From contig JANRKS010000040.1 of assembly GCA_033763315.1 (NCBI GenBank), forward strand, positions 32,001-96,000: DNA of 64,000 nt. Reading direction: 5' to 3'. Numbering within the stretch: the stretch's first letter is position 1; each line of letters opens with the position of its first letter. The translations under genes were made by a program, and so were the position numbers. The DNA comes from Deltaproteobacteria bacterium. GTDB taxonomy: Bacteria; Myxococcota_A; Polyangia; Fen-1088. Of this stretch, positions 1,933 through 27,415 are shown in pieces. The notes under the pieces were generated by a model. The model saw only the letters and a list, made by a program, of their open reading frames with translations, searched no databases and was not told where the DNA came from.

Positions 1933-1960
1933 ACGGCGCGCGCCGCTGCTCGACGTCCTG

Positions 1961-2833
1961 TCAGACGAGGATGTCGAGCAGCTGCACCCGTGTAAGGTAT
2001 CCCTCAAGCACCGCAACCGAGTCTTCGATCAGCAAATCAAGTTCGATCGTGACGACGCGGTTTCCCGATCGGATTACGGTGCCAGAGATCACCAGCTCTT
2101 GGCCTGCCAGATCGGCGATGCCCGAAAGCCATTCGCCCACGGCCGGCAAGGTTGCAGGCCCATCGGGCCACGCCATGGTCACGTGAGTGCGGGACAGTTC
2201 CACAACGGGCGCGCGCCCCACGTCTACGCGGACATGTGACGCAAGCGTGGGCGGCGGCGCCACGCGGTAATTCACCCGGCGGTTGTTCACGATCAAGCGA
2301 TCGAGCGTGCTGTGGATGGGCGCTGACACGGGCGTGTCTTTTGATTCGAGAACCAAATCGCGCAGCGCCTTAAGCGATTTTTGTGTGGTGATGAGATTGC
2401 CGCGCATGTCGGCCAGGCGCCGCTGATCGCGGTGCAATTTGTGAGCGGACATCGCCAACAAATTGCTTAACAAGCGTATCCCCACGGCAGGATGCCGGGC
2501 AAACAACTGAGTGATGGCGGTCTCATCCAGCTCCCACACCTCGGCCGTGGCGGAGGCAACCGCACGACCGTTGCGCTCGCAGCCCACGACAGCGCCAAGC
2601 TCGCCTATCACAGCGGGTGGGCGCAAAGTGAAGGTGTCCTCGCCGGCGATCTGCAACGTCACCTCGCCTGCGGTAAGCACGTAAAGGCTGCGGGCTGTGT
2701 CGCCAACCTCGAAGAGGATGCCGCCGGGAGGCGAAGCGGCCGTAAACTTCGCACTTAACTCAACCAACGGCTCCTCCGGAATGTCTTGGAACAAGGCGAT
2801 CGTGCGAAGGTGGTCAAGGCGAGGTCCAGGCAT
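1961..2833 (-). CDS. Cyclic-nucleotide-binding domain protein with coiled coil and C-terminal PilZ-like domain
   Basis: LRTIALFQDI...LFEVGD...LYVLTAGEV...IGELG...R cNMP fold; C-terminal NRRVNYRV (RxxxR) followed by VVELS. Confidence 0.75.
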   Translation of the reverse strand: MPGPRLDHLRTIALFQDIPEEPLVELSAKFTAASPPGGILFEVGDTARSLYVLTAGEVTLQIAGEDTFTLRPPAVIGELGAVVGCERNGRAVASATAEVWELDETAITQLFARHPAVGIRLLSNLLAMSAHKLHRDQRRLADMRGNLITTQKSLKALRDLVLESKDTPVSAPIHSTLDRLIVNNRRVNYRVAPPPTLASHVRVDVGRAPVVELSRTHVTMAWPDGPATLPAVGEWLSGIADLAGQELVISGTVIRSGNRVVTIELDLLIEDSVAVLEGYLTRVQLLDILV

Positions 2834-3039
2834 CGCAGGAGTTTACACCTCAATGCGCAAGCCCGAAATTGCGGCCAACAACTCCATCATATCGCTCATG
2901 ATTCTCGGCCCCGTTGGTCCCCCCACAGAAATTTGAGCCTAGGCATAACGAGCTATGAGCGACCAAGCTCCCGCCGAAACCTGCGCCTCAAGCACACCTT
3001 TACGTGACCCTGCCTGCGTTTCCCTTATATAGAGGGCGC

Positions 3040-4509
3040 ATGAAATCTCTGCTCGCTGCTCTCGCGTTGGTTTGTGCCCTGCCACAAGTGGTTTGGGCGC
3101 AGACGCTGCTGACACCCGGGTACCAATTCAATTCAGACCCCACCTGCCGGGAACTCAACGGCAGACTTTATCTTTTCACCACGCACGACCAAAGCACCGT
3201 GAACTTTCAAGGGCCAGAGGATTTCTGGCACAGCATGTTCGACTACCATGCCTACAGCACCACAGACTTCAAGCATTGGATCGATCACGGCTCCGCCTTA
3301 AGCATTCACGACGCCGCCTGGGCGACCGATCTTTCAGTTTGGGATGGCGACCTGGGGATCCCCGCCAACGGAAAGTTCTATGCTTACGTTCCGTTTCGCA
3401 GCAAAGGGTTCGAGATTGGCGTACTCGTGGCCGACAGGCCTGAAGGGCCCTACCGCGATCCGCTAGGCAAACCCCTGATGACCACGGCGATCATGCGTGA
3501 GCATGGCATTGCTTTAAAGACAGAAGCGCAACCCAAGCAGGCAGACTCCCAAAGCCCAACGATCGTGCGAGACGAAAATGGCGTTCCGTACTTGCTGTTC
3601 GGTCAAATGCGCGTGTTCGCTGTGAAGTTGAAGCCCAGCATGACGGAGCTTGACGGAAAGGTCTTTGAGATCGACGTGCCCTTGCGAGGGGGCGAAGCCA
3701 CCGAATACGTGGAGGGCCCGTGGATTCACCGCATGGGCAACAAGTTTTACTTCTCATACATGACGTACAAGAACTGGGAAGGTAAGACGAATTCCAATTT
3801 CACGAACGAAGATCCCGCGGGGCCGTACATTCAGTATGCGGTTTCGGACAAACTGTTCGGGCCCTATGCCAAGCCAAAGCATTGGATTTATCCAGTGGCG
3901 CCCGATGCCGCAAACAACCAGCATGGCGTGTGCACATACAAAGGCCAGTGGTACGTGGCATATCACGTGCCGTATGAAGGCAAACAACACAGGCAGGTGG
4001 CCATCACGCGGCTGCGCACCAACAAACATGGTGACCTGCTGCCGATTTATCCCGGCAAGGATCCGGGGGTTGTCCCGAAGGATTCTGTAAGCTTGGTTCT
4101 AGACGCTTTTGCGCACAAGCGTGAAGCTGAAGAGTTCCATACGCGTCGTGATGCGTTCGAAGAGCGCGGTAAGAAGCAGGATTTTCACTTTAAGCTCAAG
4201 CAGGACGGCTTTCTGCACTTCCGCAATGTCGATTTCGGCGCGGGCGCCACTGGCTTCAAGGCGCATGTGAGCTGCGAGAACAGCAAAATTCACGACGCGC
4301 GGCTCGAGTTTCATCTCGACGCCCCCGATGGCCCCAAGATCGGTGAATCACCGGTACGCTTTACATATTGGATCACGTATTACCAGGAGCTCACCGGCGC
4401 CGTGCAAGGAGCCAAGGGCGTTCACGACGTCTACCTGGTGGCCAAGGGCGAAGGCGGGGATGCTTACGGTCGCCTATTCAACGTGGATTGGTTTACCTTC
4501 ACGCGGTGA
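3040..4509 (+). CDS. Family 43 glycoside hydrolase with C-terminal CBM6
   Basis: Signal peptide; SDPT...LYLFTTHD, HWIDHG, YVEGPWIH GH43 motifs; NVDFGAGATGF...GVHDVYLV...FNVDWFTF CBM6. Start moved to ATG 3040. Confidence 0.9.
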   Translation: MKSLLAALALVCALPQVVWAQTLLTPGYQFNSDPTCRELNGRLYLFTTHDQSTVNFQGPEDFWHSMFDYHAYSTTDFKHWIDHGSALSIHDAAWATDLSVWDGDLGIPANGKFYAYVPFRSKGFEIGVLVADRPEGPYRDPLGKPLMTTAIMREHGIALKTEAQPKQADSQSPTIVRDENGVPYLLFGQMRVFAVKLKPSMTELDGKVFEIDVPLRGGEATEYVEGPWIHRMGNKFYFSYMTYKNWEGKTNSNFTNEDPAGPYIQYAVSDKLFGPYAKPKHWIYPVAPDAANNQHGVCTYKGQWYVAYHVPYEGKQHRQVAITRLRTNKHGDLLPIYPGKDPGVVPKDSVSLVLDAFAHKREAEEFHTRRDAFEERGKKQDFHFKLKQDGFLHFRNVDFGAGATGFKAHVSCENSKIHDARLEFHLDAPDGPKIGESPVRFTYWITYYQELTGAVQGAKGVHDVYLVAKGEGGDAYGRLFNVDWFTFTR

Positions 4510-4568
4510 AGGCGACGGCCCGTGGCACCGCCGTGACCGATCTGCCGAGGGCCTGCTAGGATGCTGCG

Positions 4569-4994
4569 ATGGCACCAAGAGCAGCTGTGTTTTGGGCATG
4601 CGTCGGCGCACTCTGCGCGTGCGGCAACACCAAAACTGACTCGTGCTTAGACACGTGGGAACGGCGCACGTCCACGCTGGCGCCATGTGCACCCACGAAC
4701 ACGTGCGCGCAGCTCAGCGCGCAACCTGAGATTCAAGCGTCGTTTGTGATCGACCTTGCTGGCGATCCAAGCGTGCGGGGCCCCGATGGTTCGTTCGTTG
4801 TGGTTCCTGAAGGGCAACGGCTGGCAAACTGGAATTGTATGGCGGGGGCGCTCCGTGAGCGCGGTGTGAGCTCCGTTGCGCCTTATCAATCATCCTCGAA
4901 CGTCGCGGTGACGGGCACTTGGTCCCAGATTCAAGATGTGCGCGGCTTCCGTCTCGTGCTTGGCATTGCCGTCACCTGCCCCGACTGCCGGTAG
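4569..4994 (+). CDS. Hypothetical lipoprotein
   Basis: Lipobox-like GALCAC-G, coding-like composition, fills the gap between neighbours. Confidence 0.55.
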   Translation: MAPRAAVFWACVGALCACGNTKTDSCLDTWERRTSTLAPCAPTNTCAQLSAQPEIQASFVIDLAGDPSVRGPDGSFVVVPEGQRLANWNCMAGALRERGVSSVAPYQSSSNVAVTGTWSQIQDVRGFRLVLGIAVTCPDCR

Positions 4995-5061
4995 CGGAGC
5001 CTTGTGGCCCAAGCTCCAACAAAGCCAACCAAAGCCTCGCCATCGCGTAAGCTATTGTGAC

Positions 5062-6135
5062 GTGCCTAAGTACGACTTTCCGCCTGCACCCGTAAGCCTT
5101 AAGGGGCGCACCACTGAACTGCGTGCCCTGCAACACCGCCTCACCGACGGCCGCATTGCACGGCTGGCCTTGGTCGGCGGTGGGGGCAGTGGCAAATCGC
5201 TGCTAGCGTGTGCCATCGGCCATCGCTTGCGCGCTCACTTTACAGGCGGCCTCGTGTGGCTGCGCGTGGGCAACTGGGACACCACCACGTTGTTCCAAAT
5301 GTTTGCGCGCAAGATGGGCGCCAATCCAACCGGCGGCGCGCGCGGTTTGCGTCGGACGCTTGGGCAACTTGGCCCAGTATTGATCGTACTCGACAACCAC
5401 GAGAATGATGCCGCGTTGGCCAGGTTCTTGGATGAGCTAAACGTTCCGAACGTGGTGTGGCTGATCACGGCGCGCCGTTGCCTTTTGTCAGGCGTTGAAA
5501 TCTTTGCGGTGGTTCCGCCGCTGGTTACGTCGGCGCAGGATGCGTTTCCGCGCGTCGCACCGCTAACGAAGCTGCTGCGATGGAACCCGTTGGCGCTCGA
5601 CATCGCTGACGCGCTTGTTCACACGCGCGCCGTTTCTGTGAGGGCGCTTCATTCGTGGCTCTTGAGCCATGGGCTGGGCCAGGTCCGTGTGATGGCCCAC
5701 GAGGACGACATCGCAGAAGTGCGAGGTTTGTTTGAATGGGCCTGGGCGAAGCTTGCCCCGGCCAGCCGACGGCAACTGGTTGTGCTTGCAAGCAGTGAAG
5801 GCGACGACATCGATGAAGCGTCCCTGTTCGCGCTGGCTCGCACCGGCAAGGGTGGCGAACAAGCGCTTGGGGCGCTCAGACGTTGGCACCTTGTTCAGGA
5901 GCCCGTGACCGGCCGTTTTACAGTGCACGCGGTGATTCGGTACGCCGTTCAAACGAAGAAGCAACTGCCGGGGAAGCTATATTTCGATCACTACGTCCCG
6001 TTGCTTGAACGCGACAAAGAACGGGTGGTTCAGGAACAGACCCACCTCTACGCCGCGATGGATTATGCCCACCGCAATTCATCACTGGTCGACGCCTTAC
6101 GTGTTCAAGAGCTAGCCACGTTGTTGGGCGCGTAA
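5062..6135 (+). CDS. NB-ARC/STAND-type P-loop ATPase
   Basis: LKGRTTEL, Walker A GGGGSGKS, Walker B LIVLDN, WLITAR, PLALDIA (GxP-like), RFTVHAVIR (MHD-like). GTG 5062 is preceded by a TAAGCT -10-like box. Confidence 0.8.
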   Translation: MPKYDFPPAPVSLKGRTTELRALQHRLTDGRIARLALVGGGGSGKSLLACAIGHRLRAHFTGGLVWLRVGNWDTTTLFQMFARKMGANPTGGARGLRRTLGQLGPVLIVLDNHENDAALARFLDELNVPNVVWLITARRCLLSGVEIFAVVPPLVTSAQDAFPRVAPLTKLLRWNPLALDIADALVHTRAVSVRALHSWLLSHGLGQVRVMAHEDDIAEVRGLFEWAWAKLAPASRRQLVVLASSEGDDIDEASLFALARTGKGGEQALGALRRWHLVQEPVTGRFTVHAVIRYAVQTKKQLPGKLYFDHYVPLLERDKERVVQEQTHLYAAMDYAHRNSSLVDALRVQELATLLGA

Positions 6136-7971: not shown

Positions 7972-8571
7972 ATGAGCGATCCAGAGAAGATTGAAGCGCT
8001 GCTTGCGGCGGCACAGCATCTAGAAGAAGAGTTACAGCGTTTCGGCCGCTTGGTCGACACCGCCTGCCGGGGACAGATCGGCAGCCAAAAGGACATTGAG
8101 CGAACGGCGAAGGCGATTCAGGAGGCCACAGCCGTCGTCAGCCAGATCGATGCGCGCGCGCAGGCGTTGACGCGTTCGCTGCAGCGGGCGCAGATGGCGC
8201 AACAAGGCCCCATCGACCGGCTCCGCACTCGCGCCGAGTTGCTGCGGCAGCGCCACGAAGAACACGAAGCGCTCAAAGCACGCTTTGCCGAGCTGACGGC
8301 CGAGGCAGCCTCCCTGGCCCAGATCACGCAGCCGCTGGCGGAGACGTCGTCGATTCAGCTGGATGTGGCCACACCCATCACCACTTTGAAAGACCGTCTT
8401 AAAGTGGCCCGCGAGAACGCGCGTTCGCTCATGCAGGACGCCCATTCAATGCGTTTTGAAGAAGTGGCGAAGGACGTTCACCGCTTCGAGCAAATGCTGG
8501 GCACTTTGGAGCGCAAGATCGTGCAAACCGAAGAATCGTTGACGACCGCACGCGCCCGTGTGCAATCGTAA
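7972..8571 (+). CDS. Hypothetical all-helical coiled-coil protein
   Basis: 199 aa heptad-rich ORF rich in E/Q/A/L/R; coding-like codon usage. Confidence 0.75.
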   Translation: MSDPEKIEALLAAAQHLEEELQRFGRLVDTACRGQIGSQKDIERTAKAIQEATAVVSQIDARAQALTRSLQRAQMAQQGPIDRLRTRAELLRQRHEEHEALKARFAELTAEAASLAQITQPLAETSSIQLDVATPITTLKDRLKVARENARSLMQDAHSMRFEEVAKDVHRFEQMLGTLERKIVQTEESLTTARARVQS

Positions 8572-8635
8572 GCGTGCGGTCACCGGCAAAGGGGGTTGTG
8601 GTATTCTGGGCTTGCGATTCGAGACAGGAGCTTCA

Positions 8636-9481
8636 ATGCCACACAGAACTCTCACACGCGTATTGTGCCTTGCTTGCACGGTGACCATGGCACCGCTACA
8701 AACGTGGGCGGCCAGCAAAACGGCGCCAACACCGGTACCGAAGGCGGCTCCAAGCGGCGCGGCCGCCAACGAGTTCCAGCTCCAGAACTCAAACACCGCC
8801 CGATCGGCCCAAGGTGCCACCGCTTCCAAGATCAAGGCCACCAAAACCGAGGCGGCGATGAAGTTTGTCGTCGTCGATAAGGATAAGGGCCCCGTGGCAG
8901 GCATCGTGATCTGCTTAACGGCACCCGATGGCAAAAAGTTTTATACGGAGGAAACGGATGCCACGGGTTACGCAGAAGTTTTGGTGCCCATCGGGCAAAA
9001 ATACGAGCTGGTGTACTTGTCCCTCGGTCGCCGGGACATCTCGGCGCACGTGAACGTTACGAACGAACCGAACCAGAACGTCAAGCTCACCCTGCGCTAC
9101 AAACGGCCGCCGCCGCCACCTGAAATCAAACGCAACAAAGGCGCCCCGCGCTTCGTGCTCAATGGCGTGAATTTCGATACGGGGAAGGCCACGATACGGC
9201 CCGAATCGTTCGCACGCTTGGACGCTGTGGTTGAATACATGCAGCACAAACTACAGTCGCGCATTGAAATCTCCGGGCACACAGACAACGTGGGCAACCC
9301 GAAAGCCAACAAGGCCCTGTCGCTGGCCCGGGCGCAGGCGTGCCGCAATTATCTTGTAAACAAAGGCATTCAGGGCGATCGCATCGTTGCCGTGGGCGTG
9401 GGCGATGAGCACCCCATGGCAAGCAACGACAGCGAAGAAGGCAGGCAGCAGAACCGTCGCATCGAAGCAACGGAACTGTGA
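8636..9481 (+). CDS. OmpA-family peptidoglycan-binding protein with N-terminal beta-sandwich
   Basis: AGGAG RBS; signal peptide; VNFDTGKATI, IEISGHTDNVG, LSLARA, NRRIE. Confidence 0.9.
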   Translation: MPHRTLTRVLCLACTVTMAPLQTWAASKTAPTPVPKAAPSGAAANEFQLQNSNTARSAQGATASKIKATKTEAAMKFVVVDKDKGPVAGIVICLTAPDGKKFYTEETDATGYAEVLVPIGQKYELVYLSLGRRDISAHVNVTNEPNQNVKLTLRYKRPPPPPEIKRNKGAPRFVLNGVNFDTGKATIRPESFARLDAVVEYMQHKLQSRIEISGHTDNVGNPKANKALSLARAQACRNYLVNKGIQGDRIVAVGVGDEHPMASNDSEEGRQQNRRIEATEL

Positions 9482-14260: not shown

Positions 14261-15610
14261 GTGCGGCCGCATCCCTTTGTTTGGGTGATGTGTGCTCTGG
14301 CAGGTTCCACAACCTACTGGGCATTGCAGGCGGTTATGGCGCCCCGGGGAAAACCCGCGGCCGCAGCGAACGCGGCTCCCGTCGTGAGGCCCGCCGCTAC
14401 GCCAACCATGCCCCAATTTTTAGACCTCGCGGTGCCGCCACCAGAGGTGGCGTGTGTCCCAAAGCCCGGCCGCGCCTGTCTGGCTGGCCGCGTGGTGCTG
14501 TCGCCCAAGGCGCGTGATTTGTGGCAACGGCAACAAGGAACAGCGCCCTTTGCCTTCACATCCCTTCGTATCACGCCTCACCGTCATGTGATGGATGAGC
14601 ATAAACAAGGTGATGAAGTTGAGGACGACGATGACAGCGACGAGACTGACAACCGCCACACGTGCGCGTGCGACGAGATATACGTGGGTTCGGATGGTCG
14701 CTTCGAACTTGGGCTGCTGCCAGGGCTCTACGATGTGCAGGCGCGCACCGAAGACAATGCCTTCACAGGCGTACTGGCTCGGTTTGAAGCGAAAGAACGA
14801 GCCAGCGTCGGCCCCGTTGAGTTGTTGTTAAACGTGGCGATGCACTTGACGGGCGTCGTGAGAAACCCGCAGGGGCAACCCGTGGCGAACGTGCGCGTTG
14901 AGGTGCAACGCACGGCCCCTGGGCGCTTGCAGCCGCAATCAATTCATGGACGCACAGATCAAGACGGCCACTTTGATTTCGCGCCGATGGAAGAAGGCCT
15001 TTATGATCTCGAGTTCACTTCTTCACGATACCGAAGCGCTTCACTGTTCGGCGTGTCTGCCAACCATTCCCCATTTGAGGTGCGTATGACGCGCAGCCCA
15101 GCGTTGTTGGGGATGGTGGCGGCCGGCGATCAAGATTGTCCGCCGTTTGTCGAAGTGCGGGGCCGCCTGCGATCGATGCGCGTGCCCACCGAGACGCCAG
15201 GCTGCACTTTCTATACGCAAACGTTGCCTCCCGAAGAGCAGCTACACGTTGTTGCGACGCTGGCGGGGCGGAACATTGAACAGTATTTCACTGTGCCGGT
15301 GCTTGGGGATCCGCCGGTGGTTTGCCTCGGCGGCCCCTGCCCTTTCAACCCAGCCGTTGTGTTGGTGATGCCCATTGGTGGCGAAATGGATGCTTTGTTC
15401 GTGGACACCGAAGGCAGCGAGAACGATGAGGAGCTGGGCCAGGGCATGGTGACCTCTGGTGGATTCGCACCGAACCGCTTCTACGCATTCGCTGGCTTTC
15501 GCGCGGGGCAAACCGTACGCGTGGGCGATCCCGATCAGCGGCACGCGCAGGCACGCGTCACATTGCATACGGGAGTGAACGAATTGACAATCACAGTGCC
15601 CCAACATTGA
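14261..15610 (+). CDS. Membrane-anchored protein with carboxypeptidase-regulatory-like beta-sandwich domains
   Basis: N-terminal hydrophobic anchor; DGRFEL.LLPGLYDV and LTGVVRNPQGQPVANVRV...RTDQDGHFDF...EGLYDL repeats; acidic insert. Confidence 0.75.
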   Translation: MRPHPFVWVMCALAGSTTYWALQAVMAPRGKPAAAANAAPVVRPAATPTMPQFLDLAVPPPEVACVPKPGRACLAGRVVLSPKARDLWQRQQGTAPFAFTSLRITPHRHVMDEHKQGDEVEDDDDSDETDNRHTCACDEIYVGSDGRFELGLLPGLYDVQARTEDNAFTGVLARFEAKERASVGPVELLLNVAMHLTGVVRNPQGQPVANVRVEVQRTAPGRLQPQSIHGRTDQDGHFDFAPMEEGLYDLEFTSSRYRSASLFGVSANHSPFEVRMTRSPALLGMVAAGDQDCPPFVEVRGRLRSMRVPTETPGCTFYTQTLPPEEQLHVVATLAGRNIEQYFTVPVLGDPPVVCLGGPCPFNPAVVLVMPIGGEMDALFVDTEGSENDEELGQGMVTSGGFAPNRFYAFAGFRAGQTVRVGDPDQRHAQARVTLHTGVNELTITVPQH

Positions 15611-15643: not shown

Positions 15644-17653
15644 TCAAGCGTCGCGGCTGATCTCTGCCGCAAACAATTCGTGCATCAGCTGGCTGATGTC
15701 CTCCCGTGAGGCCGTGGCGAAGGGGCGCAACATGCGCGCAAACTCGCCGGCCGAACGAATGCGTTGATCCACGGTGGGCGCCATCGCTTGCTTGATCACT
15801 TGCACAAGCTCCGGATCGAGTTTCGTCATCTCAAGATCCATGCGCGAGAACTCGGTGTGCCCGGGGCCCACGGCGGCGCGGAGGATCTGGTTGATGGGCG
15901 TGAGCTCCTTGCTGTTGTAGAGCGCGTGGCCCACCAAACAACAAAACGCCACCACGCCAGCGGCAAACACATCGGCGCGCGCGTCCACGGCTTCTCCGCG
16001 CGCCTGCTCGGGCGACATATAGCCGGCGTTGCCCTTGACCATCCCCATCTGCGTTTTGCTGACCCGGCTTTCCGCTTTGACAATGCCGAAATCCGACAGC
16101 TTCACTTCGCCCGCGTAGGACACGAGTACGTTCGAGAGCGACACGTCCCTGTGGACTATCTCCATTGGCTTGCCTTTGGCGTCGACGCGGGTGTGGGCAT
16201 ATTCGAGTGCCAACAACACTTCGCGAATGATGGTCATCGCGATCGGCGTGGGCAGCGGCTTGCCATGCACTGACATGTGCCGCAGCAAAACCTTCTCCAG
16301 ATCTTTGCCGGCCACGTACTCAAGCGCCAAGAAGTAATCGTTGCCCGCTCGGCCGAAATCAAACACCGATACGATATTTGAATGCGCTAGCCCAGATTGC
16401 AAACGCGCCTCATCCACGAACTGCGCAACCGCTTCGGGCAAACCAAGCAAATGCGGATGCATGCGTTTGACCACCAAAGTGCGCTCAAACCCCTCGGCCC
16501 CGTGAAGGATCGCGCGGAAGATCTCCGCCATGCCGCCTTCGCCGATGCGATCCAGCAAAGAATAGCGCCCCAACACATGGGGCTTTTGTTCTCGCAAATC
16601 AACAGCCACCGCGGTGGCGCTCATCGTTTCCGAAACGCTGATCTCACCGGAGGGTTTGCGTGTGCGAGGATCAGAGGTGCCATGCGTTTCGGCCACGCGG
16701 GGGGCGGTGGGGCCCGTGCCGATCACTGTGGCCTTTGCTGGCAACGCCGCAGCTGGCGCTTCCGCTGGAGTAAGGGGTTGCGTGGGCGTGCGGAACAACA
16801 CAACAACACCAGCAAGTACGAAAACCGCACCCAAGCCCCAAAACACGAATGCCAGTGGGTTCACGGCGGACGGTGCGGCCAAAGGCACGGCGCCCACCGC
16901 CCACAACCACAAACCACCGGGAAGCTGCTTGGATGCGAACGGCAGATAGTCCGCTGTGGCACCGGCAGGGGCGCCTTCTTGCCCCAGCAGTTGCGGCAAC
17001 GCCGCGGTCTGCGCCGCAGGGCCGCCAGCCAAGAGCAACTGTTGCCCATCGGAAATGCCGAGCGCCGCACCACTGGTCAACGCGGCAGCGGTGAGCGCTT
17101 CCTGCGTCAACACTTCAGCCAAGATGATCACGCCCTCATGCTGGCCACCCGCAGGCTCCAAACGAGCGGCCGCGGCGGCATACACGCGGCCACTGCCTTT
17201 GATCAACCCTGAAGCCACTTTGTTTGCCGACGCACGTTTGATCAAATCATCTGCCACGGGCATCGGTGATTCCAAGAACAACGAGGCGAGCGGTTTGCCG
17301 CTAACCACGAGCGCGCTCACGCGGCCACGGCTGCGAAACGGGTTCCACCAATCCTCGTTTTCAAACGCGTCCTGAAACGTAGCCGCGTCAACCTCATCGC
17401 GAACGGCGGCAAGCAAAGGCGGCAGCCGTGCTGCCTCGGCCGCTGGTACCTCGAGTGATTTGCCCCGGCTGTCTAAGGCCGCTTGGGCCCGCGAAACGAA
17501 ACGTTCTGCCACAGCAGCCACCGGCGCCGCTTGCGAACGCTTTTGCCCGTGCATCGCGAAGCCCCCACCCAAGGCTGCCGCGCCGAGGGCAATGAGCACG
17601 AGCGGCAAACGCGAAACACGGCGCACGGGTGCAGGCGATTGATCAGTCTTCAT
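15644..17653 (-). CDS. Membrane Ser/Thr protein kinase with N-terminal periplasmic sensor domain (TM-sensor-TM-kinase)
   Basis: Two TM helices flank about 230 aa; kinase motifs IGEGGMAEIF, VVKR, HRDVSLSN, DFG, GNAGYMSPEQ, DVFAAG. Confidence 0.92.
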   Translation of the reverse strand: MKTDQSPAPVRRVSRLPLVLIALGAAALGGGFAMHGQKRSQAAPVAAVAERFVSRAQAALDSRGKSLEVPAAEAARLPPLLAAVRDEVDAATFQDAFENEDWWNPFRSRGRVSALVVSGKPLASLFLESPMPVADDLIKRASANKVASGLIKGSGRVYAAAAARLEPAGGQHEGVIILAEVLTQEALTAAALTSGAALGISDGQQLLLAGGPAAQTAALPQLLGQEGAPAGATADYLPFASKQLPGGLWLWAVGAVPLAAPSAVNPLAFVFWGLGAVFVLAGVVVLFRTPTQPLTPAEAPAAALPAKATVIGTGPTAPRVAETHGTSDPRTRKPSGEISVSETMSATAVAVDLREQKPHVLGRYSLLDRIGEGGMAEIFRAILHGAEGFERTLVVKRMHPHLLGLPEAVAQFVDEARLQSGLAHSNIVSVFDFGRAGNDYFLALEYVAGKDLEKVLLRHMSVHGKPLPTPIAMTIIREVLLALEYAHTRVDAKGKPMEIVHRDVSLSNVLVSYAGEVKLSDFGIVKAESRVSKTQMGMVKGNAGYMSPEQARGEAVDARADVFAAGVVAFCCLVGHALYNSKELTPINQILRAAVGPGHTEFSRMDLEMTKLDPELVQVIKQAMAPTVDQRIRSAGEFARMLRPFATASREDISQLMHELFAAEISRDA

Positions 17654-18572
17654 AAGATCCGTACGCCTGGCCAAACTTGTTCAGATGCGGCTGCTTCGGG
17701 GCCACGGACGCGGCCATTTGCACCCGGTTCACGCCGCCCGCAACCTCGACAGCCTTAACAGCAGGCTTGATCCCTGGCGCCCACAACACGACCTTGCGCA
17801 CGCCGACGGGCACGCCATCGATCTCGAAGGAGCCATCGCCGTTGACCTTCGCAAAATAACCATTGGGCACCACCAACACATCCGCCTGCATCTTGCTGTG
17901 GATGTTGCACATGATTTCCACGTGCCCCGGCCGCGTCAGCGCCACGGGAGAAGACGTGGTTCCTCCCTTAAGGCTGCCCACGTCAAACGCGTTGCTACGG
18001 CTTTTGGAGAACACGTTGTGAAAGATGGCGTCGCGGTTCGGGAAGATCAACTTGGTGCCCACCGGCACCGCCACCACGCGCGGTGCGAATTGCTTGTTCT
18101 CCTGCCGAATCTCCACGGTGCGAAGCGGGCCCGTACGCCCGCGCAAGCCATCGACATAAACATATGCCTCGCCCGCCCCCGAAGGCAGTTCAACCTTGCC
18201 CTGCAGCTTTCCCGTGGTGGCGGCCACTTCGCGCGTCGTCTGGCTTGGTTGATCGGGCGTTGCCGCCGGCGTGCTGGGTGTGGCGGGCTTGGGCAACGCG
18301 GGAATGTTCATCGCCTGGTTGCCTGCGCTCGCACGAATGAGCTGCACCAACACGTCGTAACGTTGTTGATCGGCGGCCATCATGTTCAGGATCAGCTGTT
18401 TCTGCTCAGCCAGCTCGCGCTCCAGCCGTGCGACGTCAGACTGCAACCGCGCAACCTCTGAAGAGGGGTCCGCGGCCGCTGCGATGGAAGGAGCGGCAAG
18501 GAGGCACCCCACCCCGAATAGCGTCGTAAGCAAATGCTGCCTTGAAATAGACATCGTGGGCAATCTTCTCAT
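17643..18572 (-). CDS. Secreted cupredoxin-like protein (methylamine-utilisation-protein-like) with N-terminal coiled coil
   Basis: Signal peptide; QENKQFAPRV...FPNRDAIFHNVFS...CNIHSKM gives His/Cys/His/Met type-1 Cu ligands; followed by DGSFEIDGVPVG sandwich. Confidence 0.85.
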   Translation of the reverse strand: MRRLPTMSISRQHLLTTLFGVGCLLAAPSIAAAADPSSEVARLQSDVARLERELAEQKQLILNMMAADQQRYDVLVQLIRASAGNQAMNIPALPKPATPSTPAATPDQPSQTTREVAATTGKLQGKVELPSGAGEAYVYVDGLRGRTGPLRTVEIRQENKQFAPRVVAVPVGTKLIFPNRDAIFHNVFSKSRSNAFDVGSLKGGTTSSPVALTRPGHVEIMCNIHSKMQADVLVVPNGYFAKVNGDGSFEIDGVPVGVRKVVLWAPGIKPAVKAVEVAGGVNRVQMAASVAPKQPHLNKFGQAYGSYED

Positions 18573-18587
18573 CGCTCGGCTCCCAAA

Positions 18588-19898
18588 TTAAAAAGAAAGC
18601 ACCAGACTGCTGGTGAACACGTCGTTTCGGACGGCAGGCAAACCGCCGTATTCCCCATTGCGCAGGTATTCGGCCTTCAAGGCACTGCCTTCGGACAAGG
18701 TCATACGCACGCCGGCCGTCGCGCGCCACGATTTGGTAGCATAAAGACGTTCGTCGCCCAACCACACGCGGGCGCTGCGGTATTCGCCGCGGCCATAGGC
18801 GCCGAAGGTGGCATTGATAAGCCAGTCGAGTTCAAGGTAACCGCCGCCCTTGAGATCCAGGTCGTAAACGTCATCGGCGGCGCGGCCATCCATCTTGCCT
18901 TTGAGGAACTCAGCGCGCACGAGCAAGCGGCCGAGATCGGCCTGCACATCGGCGCCCGCGAAATAGGCCGTGCCCTTGCTGGAAGGCGAGCGATCCGGGG
19001 CGCCGTAGCTGCCCGACAGGCCCAACTCCACGCCGAACGGCAACCGCGCCGAAACGCGCGCGGACCCTGTTTTCGCAGCGTTGCTATCAACCTCGTCGTA
19101 AAAGTGAAACTGCTCCCAGGTGTTGGATCCATTGGTCAGCGCCATCGCCACCACCAACCAATCGCTGGCGCCAAACTTTGTGCGGGCTTTGACACCCACG
19201 GCAGGGTTGGTTGTGTAGCGAGCAATCAACGATGGCGTGACGCCGAAGCGCTGGTGTGATTTGCGGTTGCGGTATTCAATGCCCAACACCGAATCGGTTT
19301 TGCCCACAAACAACGAAGTGCGCTGCGATTGCGTGGGCAACCACTCAACCTGGGCGATGTCGAGATCCATCACGTCGCCTAGGCGAAAGTCGTTGCCTGT
19401 GCGAGGCGTGATGTTCAGGCTGGCGGTGATGATCGCTGTGGGTGTCATGGCCGCCCGCATGCGCAGGTTCAATTCATTCACGATAAACCCAGGGGCCCCG
19501 CGTGAGTTGATGCTGTCAAAGCGATCCGTGCCTGGCGCGTTGCCAAGGTCAGCCACTTCCCCGCGCGAATTGACCGCGGGGGCCAAAATATCGCCCAAGA
19601 ACACCCAGCCGAAGTTGCCATAGCGGTTGCTGAAGTCTTGGACGTAACCCGACCCATCACCTTGGGGAGCAAAGAACCCAACATCCACATAGCCACTCCA
19701 CTGCAGCTTCGGGTTGCGGTTGAGCAGCATCTCCTCGTTGCGCTGCACACGCTCGCGCAATTCGGCGATCGATTCGGGCGTCTCAAACACGGTGGTATCA
19801 GCGCCAGACACTTCATCTGTTGTGACTTCGGCATCCGCGGCCTGTGCCACCGCGGTCCAGATCGCACACGCGAAAAGGTATGTGACAAGGCTTTTCAC
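18588..19898 (-). CDS. Putative outer-membrane beta-barrel/porin
   Basis: Signal peptide, short coiled coil, WSGYVDVGF, amphipathic beta-strands, C-terminal Phe (SLVLSF). GTG overlaps the upstream stop. Confidence 0.75.
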   Translation of the reverse strand: MKSLVTYLFACAIWTAVAQAADAEVTTDEVSGADTTVFETPESIAELRERVQRNEEMLLNRNPKLQWSGYVDVGFFAPQGDGSGYVQDFSNRYGNFGWVFLGDILAPAVNSRGEVADLGNAPGTDRFDSINSRGAPGFIVNELNLRMRAAMTPTAIITASLNITPRTGNDFRLGDVMDLDIAQVEWLPTQSQRTSLFVGKTDSVLGIEYRNRKSHQRFGVTPSLIARYTTNPAVGVKARTKFGASDWLVVAMALTNGSNTWEQFHFYDEVDSNAAKTGSARVSARLPFGVELGLSGSYGAPDRSPSSKGTAYFAGADVQADLGRLLVRAEFLKGKMDGRAADDVYDLDLKGGGYLELDWLINATFGAYGRGEYRSARVWLGDERLYATKSWRATAGVRMTLSEGSALKAEYLRNGEYGGLPAVRNDVFTSSLVLSF

Positions 19899-21451
19899 AG
19901 GTGCGCTCCTGGTGGCGGCAAGTGCAAGGCGGGCCGGTCATACACACCGGTAAGCGTTCGCAAGAAGGCCGCTAGATCGGCACGATCGCGCGCGCTCAAC
20001 TTGAGTGGCTTCAACTCATGCGCCACGCCAGCGCTTGTGTCACCGCCTTGGTCGTAGTGCTGAATCACATCGTCGAGCGTGCTGTAAACACCATCGTGCA
20101 TGTAGGGCGCCGTTAATGCCACGTCGCGTAAACTTGGCGTGCGCCATTGGCCTTTCATCTGGGCGCCTGGCACCATCGTATAGAACCGGCTGCGTTCAGA
20201 CCCCTTGGCAGGATCGTCGCTAAACGCCCCGTTGCGCAGCACGGGCGACGCTTGCAGCTTGGTCAAGCCATCGAAGAATCCCCAGGGCAAACAGTTGCGC
20301 GGGGTCACGCAATCGCATGCGCCACCGGCGGGGCAATCGACCACGGTGGGCACGCTCACGCCTTGTTGCGGAACGCCGATGTTGTGAAAAGCGTTGTCCG
20401 AAAACAGCGGTGTGTTGTGGCACGAGATACAAGACGCGCGCCCGACGAACAAACGTAGGCCGCGCTTGGCGTCGTCTGAAAGCGCCGTGGATTCTGGTCC
20501 CTCGGCCACGAAGCGATCAAACGGGGCGTTGCGGCTGCGCAGCTCAAACTCATACGCGCCGATCAACTTTGCAACGTTCACCAGCGTGCGTGTCACGGCG
20601 GATCGATCTGCATCCGTCATGCAATCGAACGCATCAGCAAACGGCTCAGTGGCGTCGCCCACCTGGCAGCCAGCTTTTTTGCCAGGCTTGCCCTTGAGCG
20701 GGAACCGGGGCAAACAGACCTGGGCTCCTGTTTCCACGTTGGTGGCCACGGCGCAACCCGTGGGGCAGGCGGGCGCCACACCTGCACATACACCAGCCAC
20801 ATCGACAGCGGCGGCCACCTCGGCGCTTGTGCCGGTCATCGGCAATGGTTCGCCGATCACCGCTTCGTAAGCCGCGCGGTATTTGTCGGCTACCGCCCAT
20901 GCGATGCTCAAACGGTTGCCATTCATCGAAACGGCTGATTCGATCACGGCAAAAGCTTGCCCCCACAAGGAATCCGAACGTCCATTCCAATACAGCAGAT
21001 CATAGTAAGCGGCGTTGACCGACTGTTGGCTGTTGACGTCGTACCAGCCCGCGCCCACAGAAACGTGCCCGGGCACCGAAGAGGTGTCGGTGCCGGCGTG
21101 CGTGGGGTTGTGGCAAGAAGCGCAAGACAACGCCGTTCGAGTGCCGAGCGGCGAACGCGCCGAAGCCGTCGCGCGCCCTAAGGTGTCCACCCAGGTGGAA
21201 ACGCCGGAAAAATCCCCTTCGAAATAGAACTGCCATCCCAACGCCACGGCGGCTTCGTTGCCGACGAAGCGGTTAGAAGCATCGTTGCGGGGGGGCGCCA
21301 AGCCCGCCAATGACTGGGCCCGAGACCATTCTTGATGTGTGAAAAAGCAACCCGCTTCCTCACACCCAAGGTCATCAAGCCCACCACAGGCAGACAACAG
21401 CAAGGCTGTCGCGCCGAACAAATGGAAGGTGGTGGCGGGGAAATTCGACAC
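19895..21451 (-). CDS. Di-heme cytochrome c peroxidase/MauG-superfamily lipoprotein with Cys-rich inserts
   Basis: Lipobox LLSAC; AVALGWQFYF; CASCH and CISCH heme motifs; YWNGRSDSL; FHNIG; WRTPSLRDVALTAPYMHDG. Confidence 0.92.
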   Translation of the reverse strand: MSNFPATTFHLFGATALLLSACGGLDDLGCEEAGCFFTHQEWSRAQSLAGLAPPRNDASNRFVGNEAAVALGWQFYFEGDFSGVSTWVDTLGRATASARSPLGTRTALSCASCHNPTHAGTDTSSVPGHVSVGAGWYDVNSQQSVNAAYYDLLYWNGRSDSLWGQAFAVIESAVSMNGNRLSIAWAVADKYRAAYEAVIGEPLPMTGTSAEVAAAVDVAGVCAGVAPACPTGCAVATNVETGAQVCLPRFPLKGKPGKKAGCQVGDATEPFADAFDCMTDADRSAVTRTLVNVAKLIGAYEFELRSRNAPFDRFVAEGPESTALSDDAKRGLRLFVGRASCISCHNTPLFSDNAFHNIGVPQQGVSVPTVVDCPAGGACDCVTPRNCLPWGFFDGLTKLQASPVLRNGAFSDDPAKGSERSRFYTMVPGAQMKGQWRTPSLRDVALTAPYMHDGVYSTLDDVIQHYDQGGDTSAGVAHELKPLKLSARDRADLAAFLRTLTGVYDRPALHLPPPGAHL

Positions 21452-21559: not shown

Positions 21560-23827
<2,268 letters not shown>

Positions 23828-23923: not shown

Positions 23924-26900
23924 GTGGCACATGTCGTGGCAAACGCGCGGAACACCAACAACGGAGACGGAGCCGATAGGGCCACAGCTGCCGCTGCCCG
24001 CACGTCCGCAAACATCGTCGCGTTGCCGCCCGAGGTGATCAAGGCGGCCAGCGAGGGCGCGCAACAACTGGGGCATTACATCCTCATCAGGGAGTTGGGG
24101 CAAGGTGGATCGGGCACCGTCTACGCGGCGTGGGATAGGCACCTTGGACGATGGGCGGCGATTAAGGTTCTGAACCACATAACCGCGGAGAGCGCCGCAC
24201 GGTTTCTGCGGGAGGCCCAGATGGCGTCACGCCTATCGCACCCCCACATCGTGCCGCTTTACGAAGCCTCCGAAGCGGACGGGGGGCGCCCCTTCTTGGC
24301 AATGAAACTGATCCATGGTCAGCAGCTCTCGCGCGTGCAACTTGAGGTCAAACGCGCGAGCGCCGTTATGCGCGACGTGGCGGATGCCGTTCAATACGCC
24401 CACGACAACGGCGTGATCCATCGCGATCTCAAGCCGCAAAACCTGATGCTTGATGAAGCGGGCCACGTATGGATCCTGGACTTCGGCCTGGCACACTCCG
24501 TAGACAATGGCAGCACCTTAACGGTGGCCGGCGCCATCGTGGGCACGCCTGCCTTTATGCCGCCCGAACAAGCGCGCGGTAAACACTGCGATGAACGCAG
24601 CGATGTGTACGCGTTGGGCGCCACCTTGTATGCGTTGTTGAGTGGTCGCGCGCCGTTTGAAGGCGACAACGCTTTGTGGGTAATGACCCAAGTTTTGGCT
24701 GACGATCCGCCACCTTTGCGATCGTTGAACGAACGTGTTCCAAAGGACATCGAGACGATCGTTCAAAAGGCCATGCGCCGTGATCCACAACAACGATACG
24801 CGCGCGCCCGTGACTTCGCCGACGACCTGCGCCGGCACGACCGCGGTGAGGTTGTGACGGCACGCCCCGTGGGCGCAGCCGCGCGCTTGGCCAAAACCGT
24901 GCGGCGAAACAAAGTCGCCGCTGTCACGTTGGCGGCGATCGTCTGCGGCGTGGGCTTGTTCGGATTGGGGGCCTTCCGCTACGCAAAGGATATGGAGGTG
25001 CGCGAACAGGCCACGGCGGAGGCGCGCGCCTTGGCCGAATCGCGCTTGGCGCAAGCGTCGAAGAACCTGAAAACAGCCGAGCTCAACCGCGCCGAGGGCC
25101 TTGTGGAGGAAGGCAACGCGCTTGGCGCCGCGGGCGATTGGCAAAGTGCAAGCTTGCGCTACCAAGCGGCCGATACGATTTTTAAAGGGGTCGGCGAGGA
25201 AGATCCTGGGCCCAACGCGGGCATGACGGACGTGCTTATGCGTGCGCCTCCGCCCATATGGATCCAACCAGCCCTTCATTCGGCGCGCATCACAGAGCTG
25301 GTTCTAAATCGTGACGAAACCCGCACCTACTCAAGCAGCTTGGATGGCACCGTCAAAGTTTTCGACCCGCGCAATCAACAGGTCGAACACACGTTTGAGT
25401 TGAACGTGCAAGTGTGGGCGCTGGCGCTCGATCCCTCTGAGCGCTTTCTCGTGGCAACCACAGAGGACGGGCAAGCGGTGATCTGGGACGTGAAGACTTT
25501 CGCGGAGGTGCGGAAGTTGCAGCAATTGCCAACACGCCTGCGAGCGATCGCCTTTTCCCCCGATGGGCGCTGGCTGACCGGCGTCTATTTCGACGGCACC
25601 GTCGTGACGTGGGCGTTTCCCGAAGGGCGCGTCTTGGCGACGTGGAAGGAGGCCACTTACGCGCGCTCAGTTGCGTATCCCGCGTTTGGCAATGGCACTG
25701 TAACGATCGGCCTCTCGCACGATCGCACCGGGCCCTGGGCCGTTTTGCGCAAGGCAGACACGGGCCAAAAGGTCGGCGCACTCACCAACAACAAGGCCTT
25801 CGCTGGCGTTCGCAACATCGTGGCCGACCGTCGAACAGGGTCCTTATATGCAGGGTTTGACGGCGGCTTTTTGATTCAGCCCAAGGGCAGCCAAGGGGCG
25901 CACACCTATGCCAGTTTCGGACACACCGTCGGCGTGTCATTGAACGCGGCGGAAGATCTTTTGGCCGTCGGGTTCCTAAAAGGAGCCATCCAAGTGCGCT
26001 CACTTTCGAGCCCGCAGAAGGTCCTATTCTCGTTGACGGAAGGCGGAGGTGAGATCACGAGGCTTGGCCGCAAAGGCCGCGTATTTTCCGCAACCGATAA
26101 AGGCGCTCTCCAGCTTTGGGCCATGGGCACTCAACCCTCGATGGGTAGGGTGGCCGAGCAAGACAATGTCATTGGCGTGCAGTCGACGATGGCGGGCGCG
26201 TTGGTGGTGGTGGAACATCGTGGGGGGCGGTTCACTGGCGTGGATCGCGCCACGGGCAAGAATTTATGGACGGTTCAACTCCCGGTTCCTGCGAGGTCGT
26301 TCTCGCTGCCCTCGCCACAGGCGGATCGTTTGGCGTCATGCGATCAAGAAGGTCACCTGCGCATCTTCGCGTTGCCTTCGGGGAAACAACTCCTCATGAT
26401 TCAAGTCGATACCCCGGTGAGGTTCTTAAAGTTCTCGCCGGATTCGCGCTGGCTGGGTGCCACCTTCGCACCCGGGGGTGCGTTGTTTGATGCGAGTACG
26501 GGCGCCCTAATGACCTCGTTCAACGGCGAGCTGACGCATCGGTTCGTCGCGTTCGCTCCCGATGGCAGCCACATGGCGACGATGAGCGGAGCCGAACTTG
26601 TGATCTTCGATATGAAAGCGATGCAGGTGAAGAAGCGCTTTCCCTACCACGCAGGTTGGCGGGCTACTGACGGCTTCTGGAACGCCAAAGCGGGTGTGGT
26701 GATGGTCGCCTTCGAGGACCAAGGGGTCGTTTCTTATGATCTTCAGACGGGCGAAGAGAAGCCGCTGGTGCTGTCCGACCATGTTTCAAGTCAATTGGCG
26801 CTCGCAGCGGTGTCACGGCCCGTGCTGTGGCTGGGAACCTTGAAACATCAAGACGGAGAACTGGGGATTGATGTCTGGGACATCACAAAGAAGCGCCGCG

Positions 26901-27415
26901 TGCATCGGTTTCAGTCGAGCGGCGTTGCCGTGACCGAGCCGCACCTGCCAAGCGACGTTCCGTTGGCCGTCTCGGTAAACGACGCAGGCGAAGTCGTGGT
27001 CTGGGATCTGACGCTGCCAGATCGTTTCCAAAACCGACAGGACGAATTCGAGTTGGCCATCCGCAAAGAGGAGAAGGTGCCCTCCCCGCGCACTCATCTG
27101 GCATTGGCACGATACTTCTCTATGCGTGGCGTTGATGATTGGGCCGCCGACGAGTTCATGAAATTTGAAGAGTCAGCGGGTGCCCTGCGCCGCGAGGTAA
27201 CGGCGCTTGAATATGGCCGCGCGCTGTGGCTGGGCGGGCACATCCAGAAAGCTTTGCAGCAATACCAACACGCGCTGAAGAACGGCGAAGCGCCGTCCGA
27301 CTACTTGAGACTGTGCATCACGGCCTTGGAAGCGGAGTTGCAAGCCGGGTCTAAAGCCGCGGCCACGCCTGTGCCAAAGCGGCGCACGAAAAGCCAGCCC
27401 GTGCGGACGCTGTGA
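23924..27415 (+). CDS. Ser/Thr protein kinase with TM helix, WD40 beta-propellers and TPR-like C-terminus
   Basis: GQGGSGTVY, AIK, HRDLKPQN, DFG, GTPAFMPPEQ; WD repeats (SSLDGTVKVFD, AFSPDGRWL, FSPDSRWL). Confidence 0.93.
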   Translation: MAHVVANARNTNNGDGADRATAAAARTSANIVALPPEVIKAASEGAQQLGHYILIRELGQGGSGTVYAAWDRHLGRWAAIKVLNHITAESAARFLREAQMASRLSHPHIVPLYEASEADGGRPFLAMKLIHGQQLSRVQLEVKRASAVMRDVADAVQYAHDNGVIHRDLKPQNLMLDEAGHVWILDFGLAHSVDNGSTLTVAGAIVGTPAFMPPEQARGKHCDERSDVYALGATLYALLSGRAPFEGDNALWVMTQVLADDPPPLRSLNERVPKDIETIVQKAMRRDPQQRYARARDFADDLRRHDRGEVVTARPVGAAARLAKTVRRNKVAAVTLAAIVCGVGLFGLGAFRYAKDMEVREQATAEARALAESRLAQASKNLKTAELNRAEGLVEEGNALGAAGDWQSASLRYQAADTIFKGVGEEDPGPNAGMTDVLMRAPPPIWIQPALHSARITELVLNRDETRTYSSSLDGTVKVFDPRNQQVEHTFELNVQVWALALDPSERFLVATTEDGQAVIWDVKTFAEVRKLQQLPTRLRAIAFSPDGRWLTGVYFDGTVVTWAFPEGRVLATWKEATYARSVAYPAFGNGTVTIGLSHDRTGPWAVLRKADTGQKVGALTNNKAFAGVRNIVADRRTGSLYAGFDGGFLIQPKGSQGAHTYASFGHTVGVSLNAAEDLLAVGFLKGAIQVRSLSSPQKVLFSLTEGGGEITRLGRKGRVFSATDKGALQLWAMGTQPSMGRVAEQDNVIGVQSTMAGALVVVEHRGGRFTGVDRATGKNLWTVQLPVPARSFSLPSPQADRLASCDQEGHLRIFALPSGKQLLMIQVDTPVRFLKFSPDSRWLGATFAPGGALFDASTGALMTSFNGELTHRFVAFAPDGSHMATMSGAELVIFDMKAMQVKKRFPYHAGWRATDGFWNAKAGVVMVAFEDQGVVSYDLQTGEEKPLVLSDHVSSQLALAAVSRPVLWLGTLKHQDGELGIDVWDITKKRRVHRFQSSGVAVTEPHLPSDVPLAVSVNDAGEVVVWDLTLPDRFQNRQDEFELAIRKEEKVPSPRTHLALARYFSMRGVDDWAADEFMKFEESAGALRREVTALEYGRALWLGGHIQKALQQYQHALKNGEAPSDYLRLCITALEAELQAGSKAAATPVPKRRTKSQPVRTL

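Follow-up and report, generated by a model that had tools for sequence, protein, structure and literature searches.

Introduction

It is well established that bacterial di-heme peroxidases can receive electrons from cupredoxins (a point in favor of the reading proposed below), and the di-heme enzyme MbnH acts beside a copper protein. Among signaling systems, the H-NOX and NosP heme sensors adjoin histidine kinases or GGDEF/EAL enzymes, and LuxP–LuxQ is a receptor that depends on an accessory protein. In proteobacteria (e.g., on a plasmid of Burkholderia sp. PAMC 26561), an annotated but uncharacterized gene cluster encodes an outer-membrane barrel, a periplasmic heme protein, a cupredoxin, and a sensor with two transmembrane segments. 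Here, we describe a related operon of four co-directional genes on the minus strand, at positions 15644–21451, of a 64,000-nucleotide stretch (the window) of contig JANRKS010000040.1 from a Deltaproteobacteria bacterium (Myxococcota_A; assembly GCA_033763315.1). It codes for a di-heme enzyme, a predicted porin-like channel, a cupredoxin, and a Ser/Thr kinase and, on balance, we lean toward reading it as an envelope redox signal-input module with a relay from heme to cupredoxin to sensor. The open reading frame (ORF) calls and translations give the following genes:

19895–21451, minus strand: di-heme c-type lipoprotein of the bacterial cytochrome c peroxidase (bCcP)/MauG superfamily, MauG/MbnH/BthA-like, 518 amino acids (P0001; Pfam, NCBIfam, and PDB matches)
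18588–19898, minus strand: predicted porin-like beta-barrel of the outer membrane, with 16 strands and a helix near the N-terminus, 436 amino acids (P0002; AlphaFold2 [AF2] model and Foldseek)
17643–18572, minus strand: secreted cupredoxin protein, 309 amino acids (P0003; AF2 model, ligand alignment, and Foldseek)
15644–17674, minus strand: membrane sensor Ser/Thr kinase, 676 amino acids from a TTG, with a probable start at ATG 17653 (P0004; translation and Pfam)

Compared with the proteobacterial cluster, the four roles are matched, the cupredoxins are homologous (tblastn E 1e-18, 38% identity, with the H...C-x2-H-x2-M ligands), and the cupredoxin gene is in both cases immediately upstream of the sensor gene. 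The components differ, however. The barrel is porin-like with a predicted 16 strands in the window, whereas it is a DUF3034 protein of ~255 residues in the proteobacterial cluster. The heme protein is a MauG-like di-heme lipoprotein in the window and a truncated globin in proteobacteria, and the output is a Hanks kinase without HAMP in the former and HAMP-GGDEF-EAL in the latter. The cupredoxin of the window has, in addition, a long N-terminal helix and a C-terminal tail. With H-NOX, NosP, and LuxP–LuxQ, the locus has in common a small sensor protein encoded beside signaling enzymes of variable output, with presumed control by direct binding, but here the accessory unit would be periplasmic and copper-based, and it would be accompanied by a heme protein of its own and, in many cases, by an outer-membrane barrel.

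The gene set and its conservation in Myxococcota

The junctions between the genes were read directly. The TGA of the heme gene and the GTG start of the barrel gene overlap by 4 bp (GTGA, 19895–19898), a spacer of 15 bp that contains GGGAG precedes the ATG of the cupredoxin gene, and the end of the latter overlaps the kinase gene by 11 bp, counted from ATG 17653 (where the database copy of the kinase begins). All four genes are translationally coupled, which supports the reading of the operon as one module, and the layout is the one given in a preliminary description made from the sequence without database searches. The GC content is even across 15644–21451. A scan for promoters and terminators was uninformative, with 0 promoter-like sites and with 11 terminator-like sites for 9.6 expected.

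From 257 relatives found by a scan of species-representative genomes, the 80 best were retained. The synteny counts concern 58 loci with a full-length cupredoxin in 49 Myxococcota assemblies and rest on tblastn; greedy ORF calling gave noisy results in this GC-rich DNA. The barrel gene is directly upstream of the cupredoxin gene in 50 of the 55 evaluable loci, and a kinase gene is directly downstream in 35 of 48, with 33 of those 35 sharing the sensor domain. A MauG-like gene is present in 49/58 loci. All four genes are found in 31 of the 44 loci with room for them. Because the arrangement recurs in dozens of species-level assemblies, it is far beyond chance. The synteny that had been proposed as a check of the preliminary description is thus observed across Myxococcota.

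The position of the MauG-like gene varies: it is directly upstream on the same strand in 23 loci, adjacent and divergent in 9, farther upstream in 11, and downstream in 6. The association holds even for a divergently oriented MauG-like paralog of ~31–37% identity. The heme gene is absent in nine loci; in four of them (L018, L022, L034, and L036), the sequence extends for 5 kb or more to either side. When all ORFs of the loci were clustered, a fifth conserved gene did not emerge, and the further clusters were small and clade-specific. In one clade (L031, L041, L043, and L044, at ~1800–5800), a divergent MauG-like gene lies ~6 kb upstream, and two clade-specific unannotated genes (~430 and ~810 amino acids) are located between it and the barrel gene.

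Several assemblies contain two copies of the module. The genome of the window (7.63 Mb, 40 contigs) has two further partial modules with a looser arrangement:

C32:627289–636161: cupredoxin, Ser/Thr kinase, barrel (46% identity), and MauG-like gene (30%), in a looser arrangement
C19:296669–302107: kinase with a homologous sensor domain, barrel (32%), and short cupredoxin, no heme gene

The cupredoxin belongs to a large family, with 449 matches at E ≤ 0.001 in a collection clustered at 90%. In a library clustered at 50%, its profile retrieves 36836, 12303, and 2392 representatives at E ≤ 1e-3, 1e-10, and 1e-30, respectively, the two looser counts including unrelated CarboxypepD_reg repeats. The database labels for the family are only "plastocyanin" or "methylamine utilization protein."

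The di-heme enzyme

The translated heme gene matches CCP_MauG (PF03150) with E 2.7e-23 and 83.7 bits (gathering cut-off 25.6) and has two CXXCH motifs, which places it in the bCcP/MauG superfamily. The conserved positions in an alignment of 49 sequences (that of the window and those of 48 loci) are as follows:

21110–21124, minus strand: first CXXCH heme motif, CASCH, residues 110–114 (C110, C113, and H114 invariant in 49/49)
20417–20431, minus strand: second CXXCH heme motif, CISCH, residues 341–345 (C341, C344, and H345 invariant in 49/49)
20054–20056, minus strand: Tyr466, at the position of MauG Tyr294 and predicted to be the axial ligand to the second heme (HMMER alignments; invariant in 49/49)

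Cys22 of the lipobox LLSAC is kept in 48/49 sequences, as is the inter-heme Trp position (W155), in line with the initial description of a lipoprotein with two CXXCH motifs. In HMMER alignments, Tyr466 aligns with Y294 of MauG (3l4m, residues 260–296) and with a Tyr of 6e1c, and it is opposite a Met ("vkiM") of the canonical peroxidase 4aao. We take that Met to be a heme ligand in the canonical enzyme. The protein is not a canonical bacterial cytochrome c peroxidase: a Tyr occupies the position of the sixth-ligand Met of the high-potential heme. A title cited in PMC6405878 gives Tyr294 as an axial heme ligand in MauG, and passages of PMC6405878 describe, for both BthA and MauG, a Tyr ligand on the six-coordinate heme.

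Within the superfamily, the enzyme resembles MauG, MbnH, and BthA in its two CXXCH motifs, in the inter-heme Trp position, and in the Tyr at the axial position. It differs from all three by being a lipoprotein and by its greater length (~130 additional residues, with Cys-rich insertions). Its scores are far under the NCBIfam equivalog cut-offs for MauG (TIGR03791, 147.7 vs. 443.85 bits) and for MbnH (TIGR04039, 120.2 vs. 362.85 bits). Unlike MauG and MbnH, it has neither a methylamine dehydrogenase nor an MbnP-type neighbor: no methylamine dehydrogenase match was found among the 16 neighboring and operon proteins scanned, and the barrel and the cupredoxin match no NCBIfam family. On its sequence features, it is a putatively Tyr-ligated, lipid-anchored member of bCcP/MauG, outside every named equivalog. 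The Cys-rich insertions are at residues 222–277 and 373–387, with four Cys kept in 26/49 sequences and six more in 34–35/49; they suggest disulfide-stabilized extra domains that are absent from the solved relatives. Near the N-terminus, Cys30 and Cys35 are retained in 34/49.

Among PDB entries, the C-terminal part is matched best by 6e1c ("Di-heme enzyme," E 7.1e-14), presumably MbnH. This match, together with the partial NCBIfam match to MbnH and the Tyr ligand, would fit a system for sensing or handling copper, in which the barrel admits copper, the kinase reads the apo or holo state of the cupredoxin, and the MauG/MbnH-like enzyme aids copper handling as MbnH does for MbnP. The low MbnH score and the lack of an MbnP-type partner among the neighboring proteins speak against such a role, which seems unlikely to us.

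The outer-membrane barrel

The AF2 model of the barrel, computed with 36 homologs, has a predicted local distance difference test (pLDDT) of 81.6 and a predicted TM-score (pTM) of 0.78, with a helix at residues 44–60 (on the periplasmic side) and 16 strands. In Foldseek, general and specific porins rank first (BpsOmp38 at 7.1e-13, MOMP, OmpM1, OprP, and OmpF), the E-values of BpsOmp38, OmpF, OprP, and others running from 7.1e-13 to 1e-9 with TM-scores of ~0.5. By this model, the protein has the 16-strand general-porin fold and is a predicted channel. The Pfam matches are sub-threshold only (OMP_b-brl, 19.9 bits vs. a cut-off of 28.7).

The C-terminus, ...LVLSF, ends in Phe as had been noticed. 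A DUF3034 identity, in contrast, does not hold for this barrel, which is larger and porin-like: with PF11231 there is no match at E ≤ 0.01 in Pfam, whereas the barrels of proteobacterial neighbors score 1.5e-92 and 4.6e-93. The most conserved residues are in the long loops 79–136 and 202–232. The high conservation of these constriction-type loops also counts in favor of the copper-sensing alternative.

The cupredoxin

In the AF2 model of the cupredoxin protein (pLDDT 85.3), a signal peptide is followed by a long helix (36–83), a disordered Pro-rich linker, a confident beta region (120–287) made of a cupredoxin domain and a CarboxypepD_reg-like domain, and a C-terminal tail. With Foldseek, the cupredoxin part matches 4hcf/4hcg (B. 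anthracis Cupredoxin_1 with copper bound), amicyanin, and plastocyanin with probability 1.00; the E-values against amicyanin, plastocyanin, and 4hcf are ~1e-6 to 1e-5. The score is under the gathering score of Pfam Cupredoxin_1 (PF13473; 22 vs. 27 bits). The ligands form a complete type-1 set:

17889–18020, minus strand: type-1 copper ligands H185 (in HNVFS), C222, H225, and M228 (C-x2-H-x2-M), invariant in 81/81 homologs

The same ligands are kept in 3/3 translated proteobacterial homologs (L088–L090) and in both globin fusions (P0237 and P0245) presented below. By fold and ligand set, the protein is a type-1 (blue) copper cupredoxin with predicted copper binding, in agreement with the secreted H/C/H/M protein that had been recognized in the translation. 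The C-x2-H-x2-M spacing is that of amicyanin. The fold, the four ligands, and this short loop are shared with amicyanin, plastocyanin, and 4hcf; here, however, the cupredoxin is embedded among the helix, the linker, the CarboxypepD_reg-like domain, and a conserved tail (HLNKxGQAYGSY, at least 90% conserved). The partner also differs, since the genomic partner here is a sensor and that of amicyanin or plastocyanin is a dehydrogenase or a photosystem. For the copper-sensing alternative, the ligand set is a difficulty: it is complete, needs no modified residue, and is ill-suited to reversible sensing of copper.

The sensor kinase

From the ATG, the kinase has hydrophobic segments at residues 16–34 and 267–288 that flank a periplasmic domain of ~230 residues. 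The two domains are:

16859–17551, minus strand: periplasmic sensor domain, putatively dCache_3/CHASE4-like, residues 35–265 from the ATG (alignment of 35 orthologs and structural neighbors)
15758–16564, minus strand: Hanks-type kinase domain, residues 371–639 (Pkinase, E 4.7e-32)

The Pkinase match (PF00069) reaches 111.9 bits for a cut-off of 31.7, and the translation contains the Gly loop as well as the motifs VVK, HRD...N, DFG, and SPE. The protein is a Hanks-type Ser/Thr kinase with, as judged by its motifs, an intact kinase domain, and the order transmembrane segment, sensor, transmembrane segment, Hanks kinase proposed at the outset is confirmed by these segments and by the Pkinase match.

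The sensor domain of the window has no Pfam match of its own. Weak CHASE4 matches occur in 9 of the 35 orthologous sensor domains (best E 2.5e-4). In the ESM Atlas, the structural neighbors are dCache_3 domains of cyclases, GGDEF-EAL proteins, and His kinases (TM-scores 0.69–0.77). The domain exists in long and short forms among the 35 orthologs, and the motif VDxxTxxDLFExEDWWxPxR is invariant in all of them.

The EDWW part of this motif is absent from the sensors of lineages without the heme and barrel genes. Such a distribution would fit the maturation of a cofactor, in which the MauG-like enzyme modifies the cupredoxin or the Trp-Trp of the sensor (by a cross-link, a quinone, or a kynurenine) and thereby makes a sensing cofactor. 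Tyr-ligated di-heme enzymes are linked to protein oxidation, with a Tyr ligand in MauG and BthA (in passages of PMC6405878), and the invariant tail of the cupredoxin has Lys and Tyr residues. However, the HxNKxG..Y part of the tail is also present in acidobacterial cupredoxins without a MauG-like neighbor, and in four loci that retain the WW, no heme gene lies within 8 kb. Furthermore, a truncated globin, incapable of MauG chemistry, fills the same slot elsewhere and is even fused to the cupredoxin. Maturation of this kind strikes us as quite improbable.

Co-folding of the cupredoxin (115–309) with the sensor domain (38–262), suggested in the preliminary description as a check, gave interface scores (ipSAE) of 0.46, 0.48, and 0.48, for 0.00 in the best of three controls, with a contact agreement of at least 87% between runs and a partner pLDDT of 85 or more. 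Of the pairs used for calibration, 116/157 solved complexes and 2/215 mismatches reached the mark; scores of 0.60 or less came from just 18 of the 157 solved pairs and from both passing mismatches. The pair thus reaches the mark, but at its low end, and the model weakly favors a contact between cupredoxin and sensor.

Other phyla, globin versions, and fusions

Among 20 distant loci (L063–L082), there are eight in which the gene directly following that of the cupredoxin encodes a membrane sensor:

L064: HAMP-guanylate cyclase
L078 (Verrucomicrobiota): HAMP-PAS-HisKA-HATPase-REC
L071 (Latescibacterota): sensor-HAMP protein
L072 and L075 (Acidobacteriota): HAMP-Pkinase
L074, L079, and L082: Pkinase

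The cupredoxin–sensor pair, with a stop/start overlap, persists in lineages without the barrel and the heme enzyme. For the ORFs of ~445 amino acids upstream of the cupredoxins of L078 and L071, a comparison with the barrel profile by hhalign did not show homology (3.7% and 5.4% probability). A Cytochrom_C_2 match upstream of the L071 cupredoxin (E 3.1e-4) is below the cut-off and overlaps the cupredoxin frame; it was not used.

In proteobacteria, tblastn of plasmids gave 27 records, and seven loci were examined. Five of the seven have DUF3034, a group 1 truncated hemoglobin, a cupredoxin annotated as "methylamine utilization protein," and an EAL/cache protein (in one of them, the sensor is a short "cache domain" fragment). 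The cluster of DUF3034, truncated globin, cupredoxin, and Cache-GGDEF-EAL sensor named in the preliminary description does therefore exist. The three proteobacterial sensors scanned with Pfam are dCache_3-HAMP-GGDEF-EAL. The globin of L088 has a Sec signal peptide; the N-terminus of the L090 globin is less clear. On a Comamonas plasmid, DUF4394 takes the place of the barrel and the globin and is followed by the cupredoxin and an EAL protein. On Sinorhizobium americanum plasmid C (3326–4926; L094), the cupredoxin gene stands beside a divergent SCO1/SenC gene and genes for a metallophosphoesterase and a sulfide dehydrogenase flavoprotein.

Fusions were searched among the best 150 representatives, of which 16 long ones were compared by blastp and five scanned with Pfam. 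Two of those five (P0237 and P0245) are of lipoprotein type, with an N-terminal truncated globin (Bac_globin) fused to a cupredoxin with intact ligands. A further fusion of this kind, at L069:2429–3826, has a Ser/Thr kinase gene on one side and, on the other, a divergent gene for a CCP_MauG protein. In the blastp comparison of the 16 long representatives, the cupredoxin was not seen fused to a barrel, a kinase, or a di-heme protein. Tandem two-cupredoxin proteins (P0127, P0131, P0138, P0151, P0182, and others) also occur, with two matches in 11 of the 16.

The heme partner is interchangeable (a MauG-like di-heme enzyme, its 31–37% paralog, or a truncated globin), and the cupredoxin is constant. 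This non-orthologous replacement of the heme protein beside a constant cupredoxin and the fusions suggest that the two proteins are directly paired in function, for which electron transfer would be the simplest form. The constancy of the cupredoxin next to variable sensor outputs is, likewise, the signature of an accessory sensor protein. The earlier proposal that a di-heme enzyme replaces the globin and phosphorylation replaces cyclic di-GMP (c-di-GMP) fits these data and is strengthened by the varied outputs and by the globin–cupredoxin fusions. Sensing or handling of copper, on the other hand, agrees poorly with the truncated globin that stands in for the di-heme enzyme, both in Proteobacteria and in the fused proteins, since the globin has no obvious role in copper handling.

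The operon could also encode a periplasmic or outer-membrane chain for electron transfer or detoxification (as in peroxide reduction, or in the porin–cytochrome/rusticyanin chains of metal oxidizers), with the kinase as a linked regulator that does not read the cupredoxin. Cupredoxins and di-heme peroxidases are redox partners, and all three proteins are predicted to be exported and co-located at the outer membrane; the co-fold, in turn, backs the contact between cupredoxin and sensor weakly. Yet no conserved oxidase, quinol-linked, or other respiratory genes are present in the loci, where only the four genes recur. The survival of the overlapping cupredoxin–sensor pair in lineages without the barrel and the heme enzyme also argues against a chain, as does the variation in outputs while the cupredoxin stays, which is unexpected if the sensor did no more than regulate a metabolic operon. 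We regard this alternative, too, as unlikely.

A putative relay from heme to cupredoxin to sensor

The anatomy of the operon, the conservation of its gene set, the interchangeability of heme partners and output domains, and the heme–cupredoxin fusions are observed, and a signal-input module would bring them together in the following way. The heme enzyme would react with a small periplasmic oxidant, which would be H2O2 or, where a globin is the heme partner, O2/NO, and exchange electrons with its dedicated cupredoxin. The sensor domain may then read the Cu(I) or Cu(II) state of the cupredoxin by direct contact, and this contact would switch the cytoplasmic kinase. The barrel might admit the signal or dock the periplasmic parts at the outer membrane. 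In its widest form, the idea extends to a phylum-spanning class of periplasmic redox co-sensors, with a blue-copper protein and an exchangeable heme partner plugged into dCache_3-type receptors of any output class and reporting envelope oxidant or O2/NO status. We put this generalization forward tentatively, its chances falling a little short of even.

Several points weigh against the proposed module. The relay names no electron source for re-reducing the cupredoxin. In MauG and MbnH, the Tyr ligand (here in 49/49 sequences) goes with the oxidation of partner proteins and not with simple peroxide reduction. Type-1 sites bind copper tightly and are classic electron carriers, and we know of no cupredoxin for which a role as signaling partner has been demonstrated. 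In Myxococcota, 13 of the 48 evaluable loci are without an adjacent kinase (seven of the 13 have one elsewhere in the locus), and the loci come mostly from related metagenome-assembled genomes, so that the counts are not those of independent events. No sensor is directly downstream of the cupredoxin in 12 of the 20 distant loci: six have barrel–cupredoxin pairs without an adjoining kinase, four show no sensor, L068 has a kinase two genes upstream, and L069 has one directly upstream. Not all members of the cupredoxin family are sensor-linked, as the Sinorhizobium homolog adjoins SCO1/SenC and no sensor; SCO1/SenC being a copper chaperone family, this neighborhood also speaks for a role in copper sensing or handling. 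Finally, hhalign of the sensor profile against single dCache_3 sensors (L088, L072, and L074) is not significant, and sequence homology between the sensor and dCache_3 is not demonstrable by profile comparison.

Literature and significance

In titles and the starts of abstracts, subscription journals lying outside the coverage, no description of the module or of a signaling cupredoxin was found, in line with the initial remark that no characterized system has this combination. The terms cupredoxin, plastocyanin, truncated, copper, and accessory are all absent from a c-di-GMP sensory census (PMC8846402), and PMC3770913 proved irrelevant to the module. DUF3034 appears, in the records retrieved, in single passing mentions under unrelated titles.

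Most extracytoplasmic sensor domains are without a known signal. The cupredoxin family would offer a concrete input mechanism for four output classes in several phyla and, if the relay is correct, this would be the first signaling role for a cupredoxin. It would also give a physiological partner to Tyr-ligated di-heme enzymes and to periplasmic truncated globins, and it would account for a module that recurs in Myxococcota, a group with many Ser/Thr kinases whose inputs are not known. Related versions are carried by cultured bacteria (Caballeronia and Burkholderia, on plasmids, and Puniceicoccaceae strain K14), so the idea is amenable to ordinary genetics.

Surroundings of the operon

A HelD-like RNA polymerase recycling helicase is encoded on the minus strand at 21560–23827, upstream of the operon and separated from it by 108 bp; its NCBIfam match to HelD_BACSU, at 163.6 bits, does not reach the cut-off. 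It was considered as a part of the unit and rejected, with no tblastn match in any of 82 loci. On the other side, genes for exported CarboxypepD_reg-like proteins are at 8558–9481 and 14261–15610, both on the plus strand; one of the two proteins is an OmpA fusion, whereas the second (449 amino acids) is encoded convergently with the kinase gene and is not a conserved neighbor in related loci. Just past the HelD-like helicase, at 23924–27415 on the plus strand, there is another Ser/Thr kinase gene (1163 amino acids), whose product has WD40/PQQ-like beta-propeller repeats.

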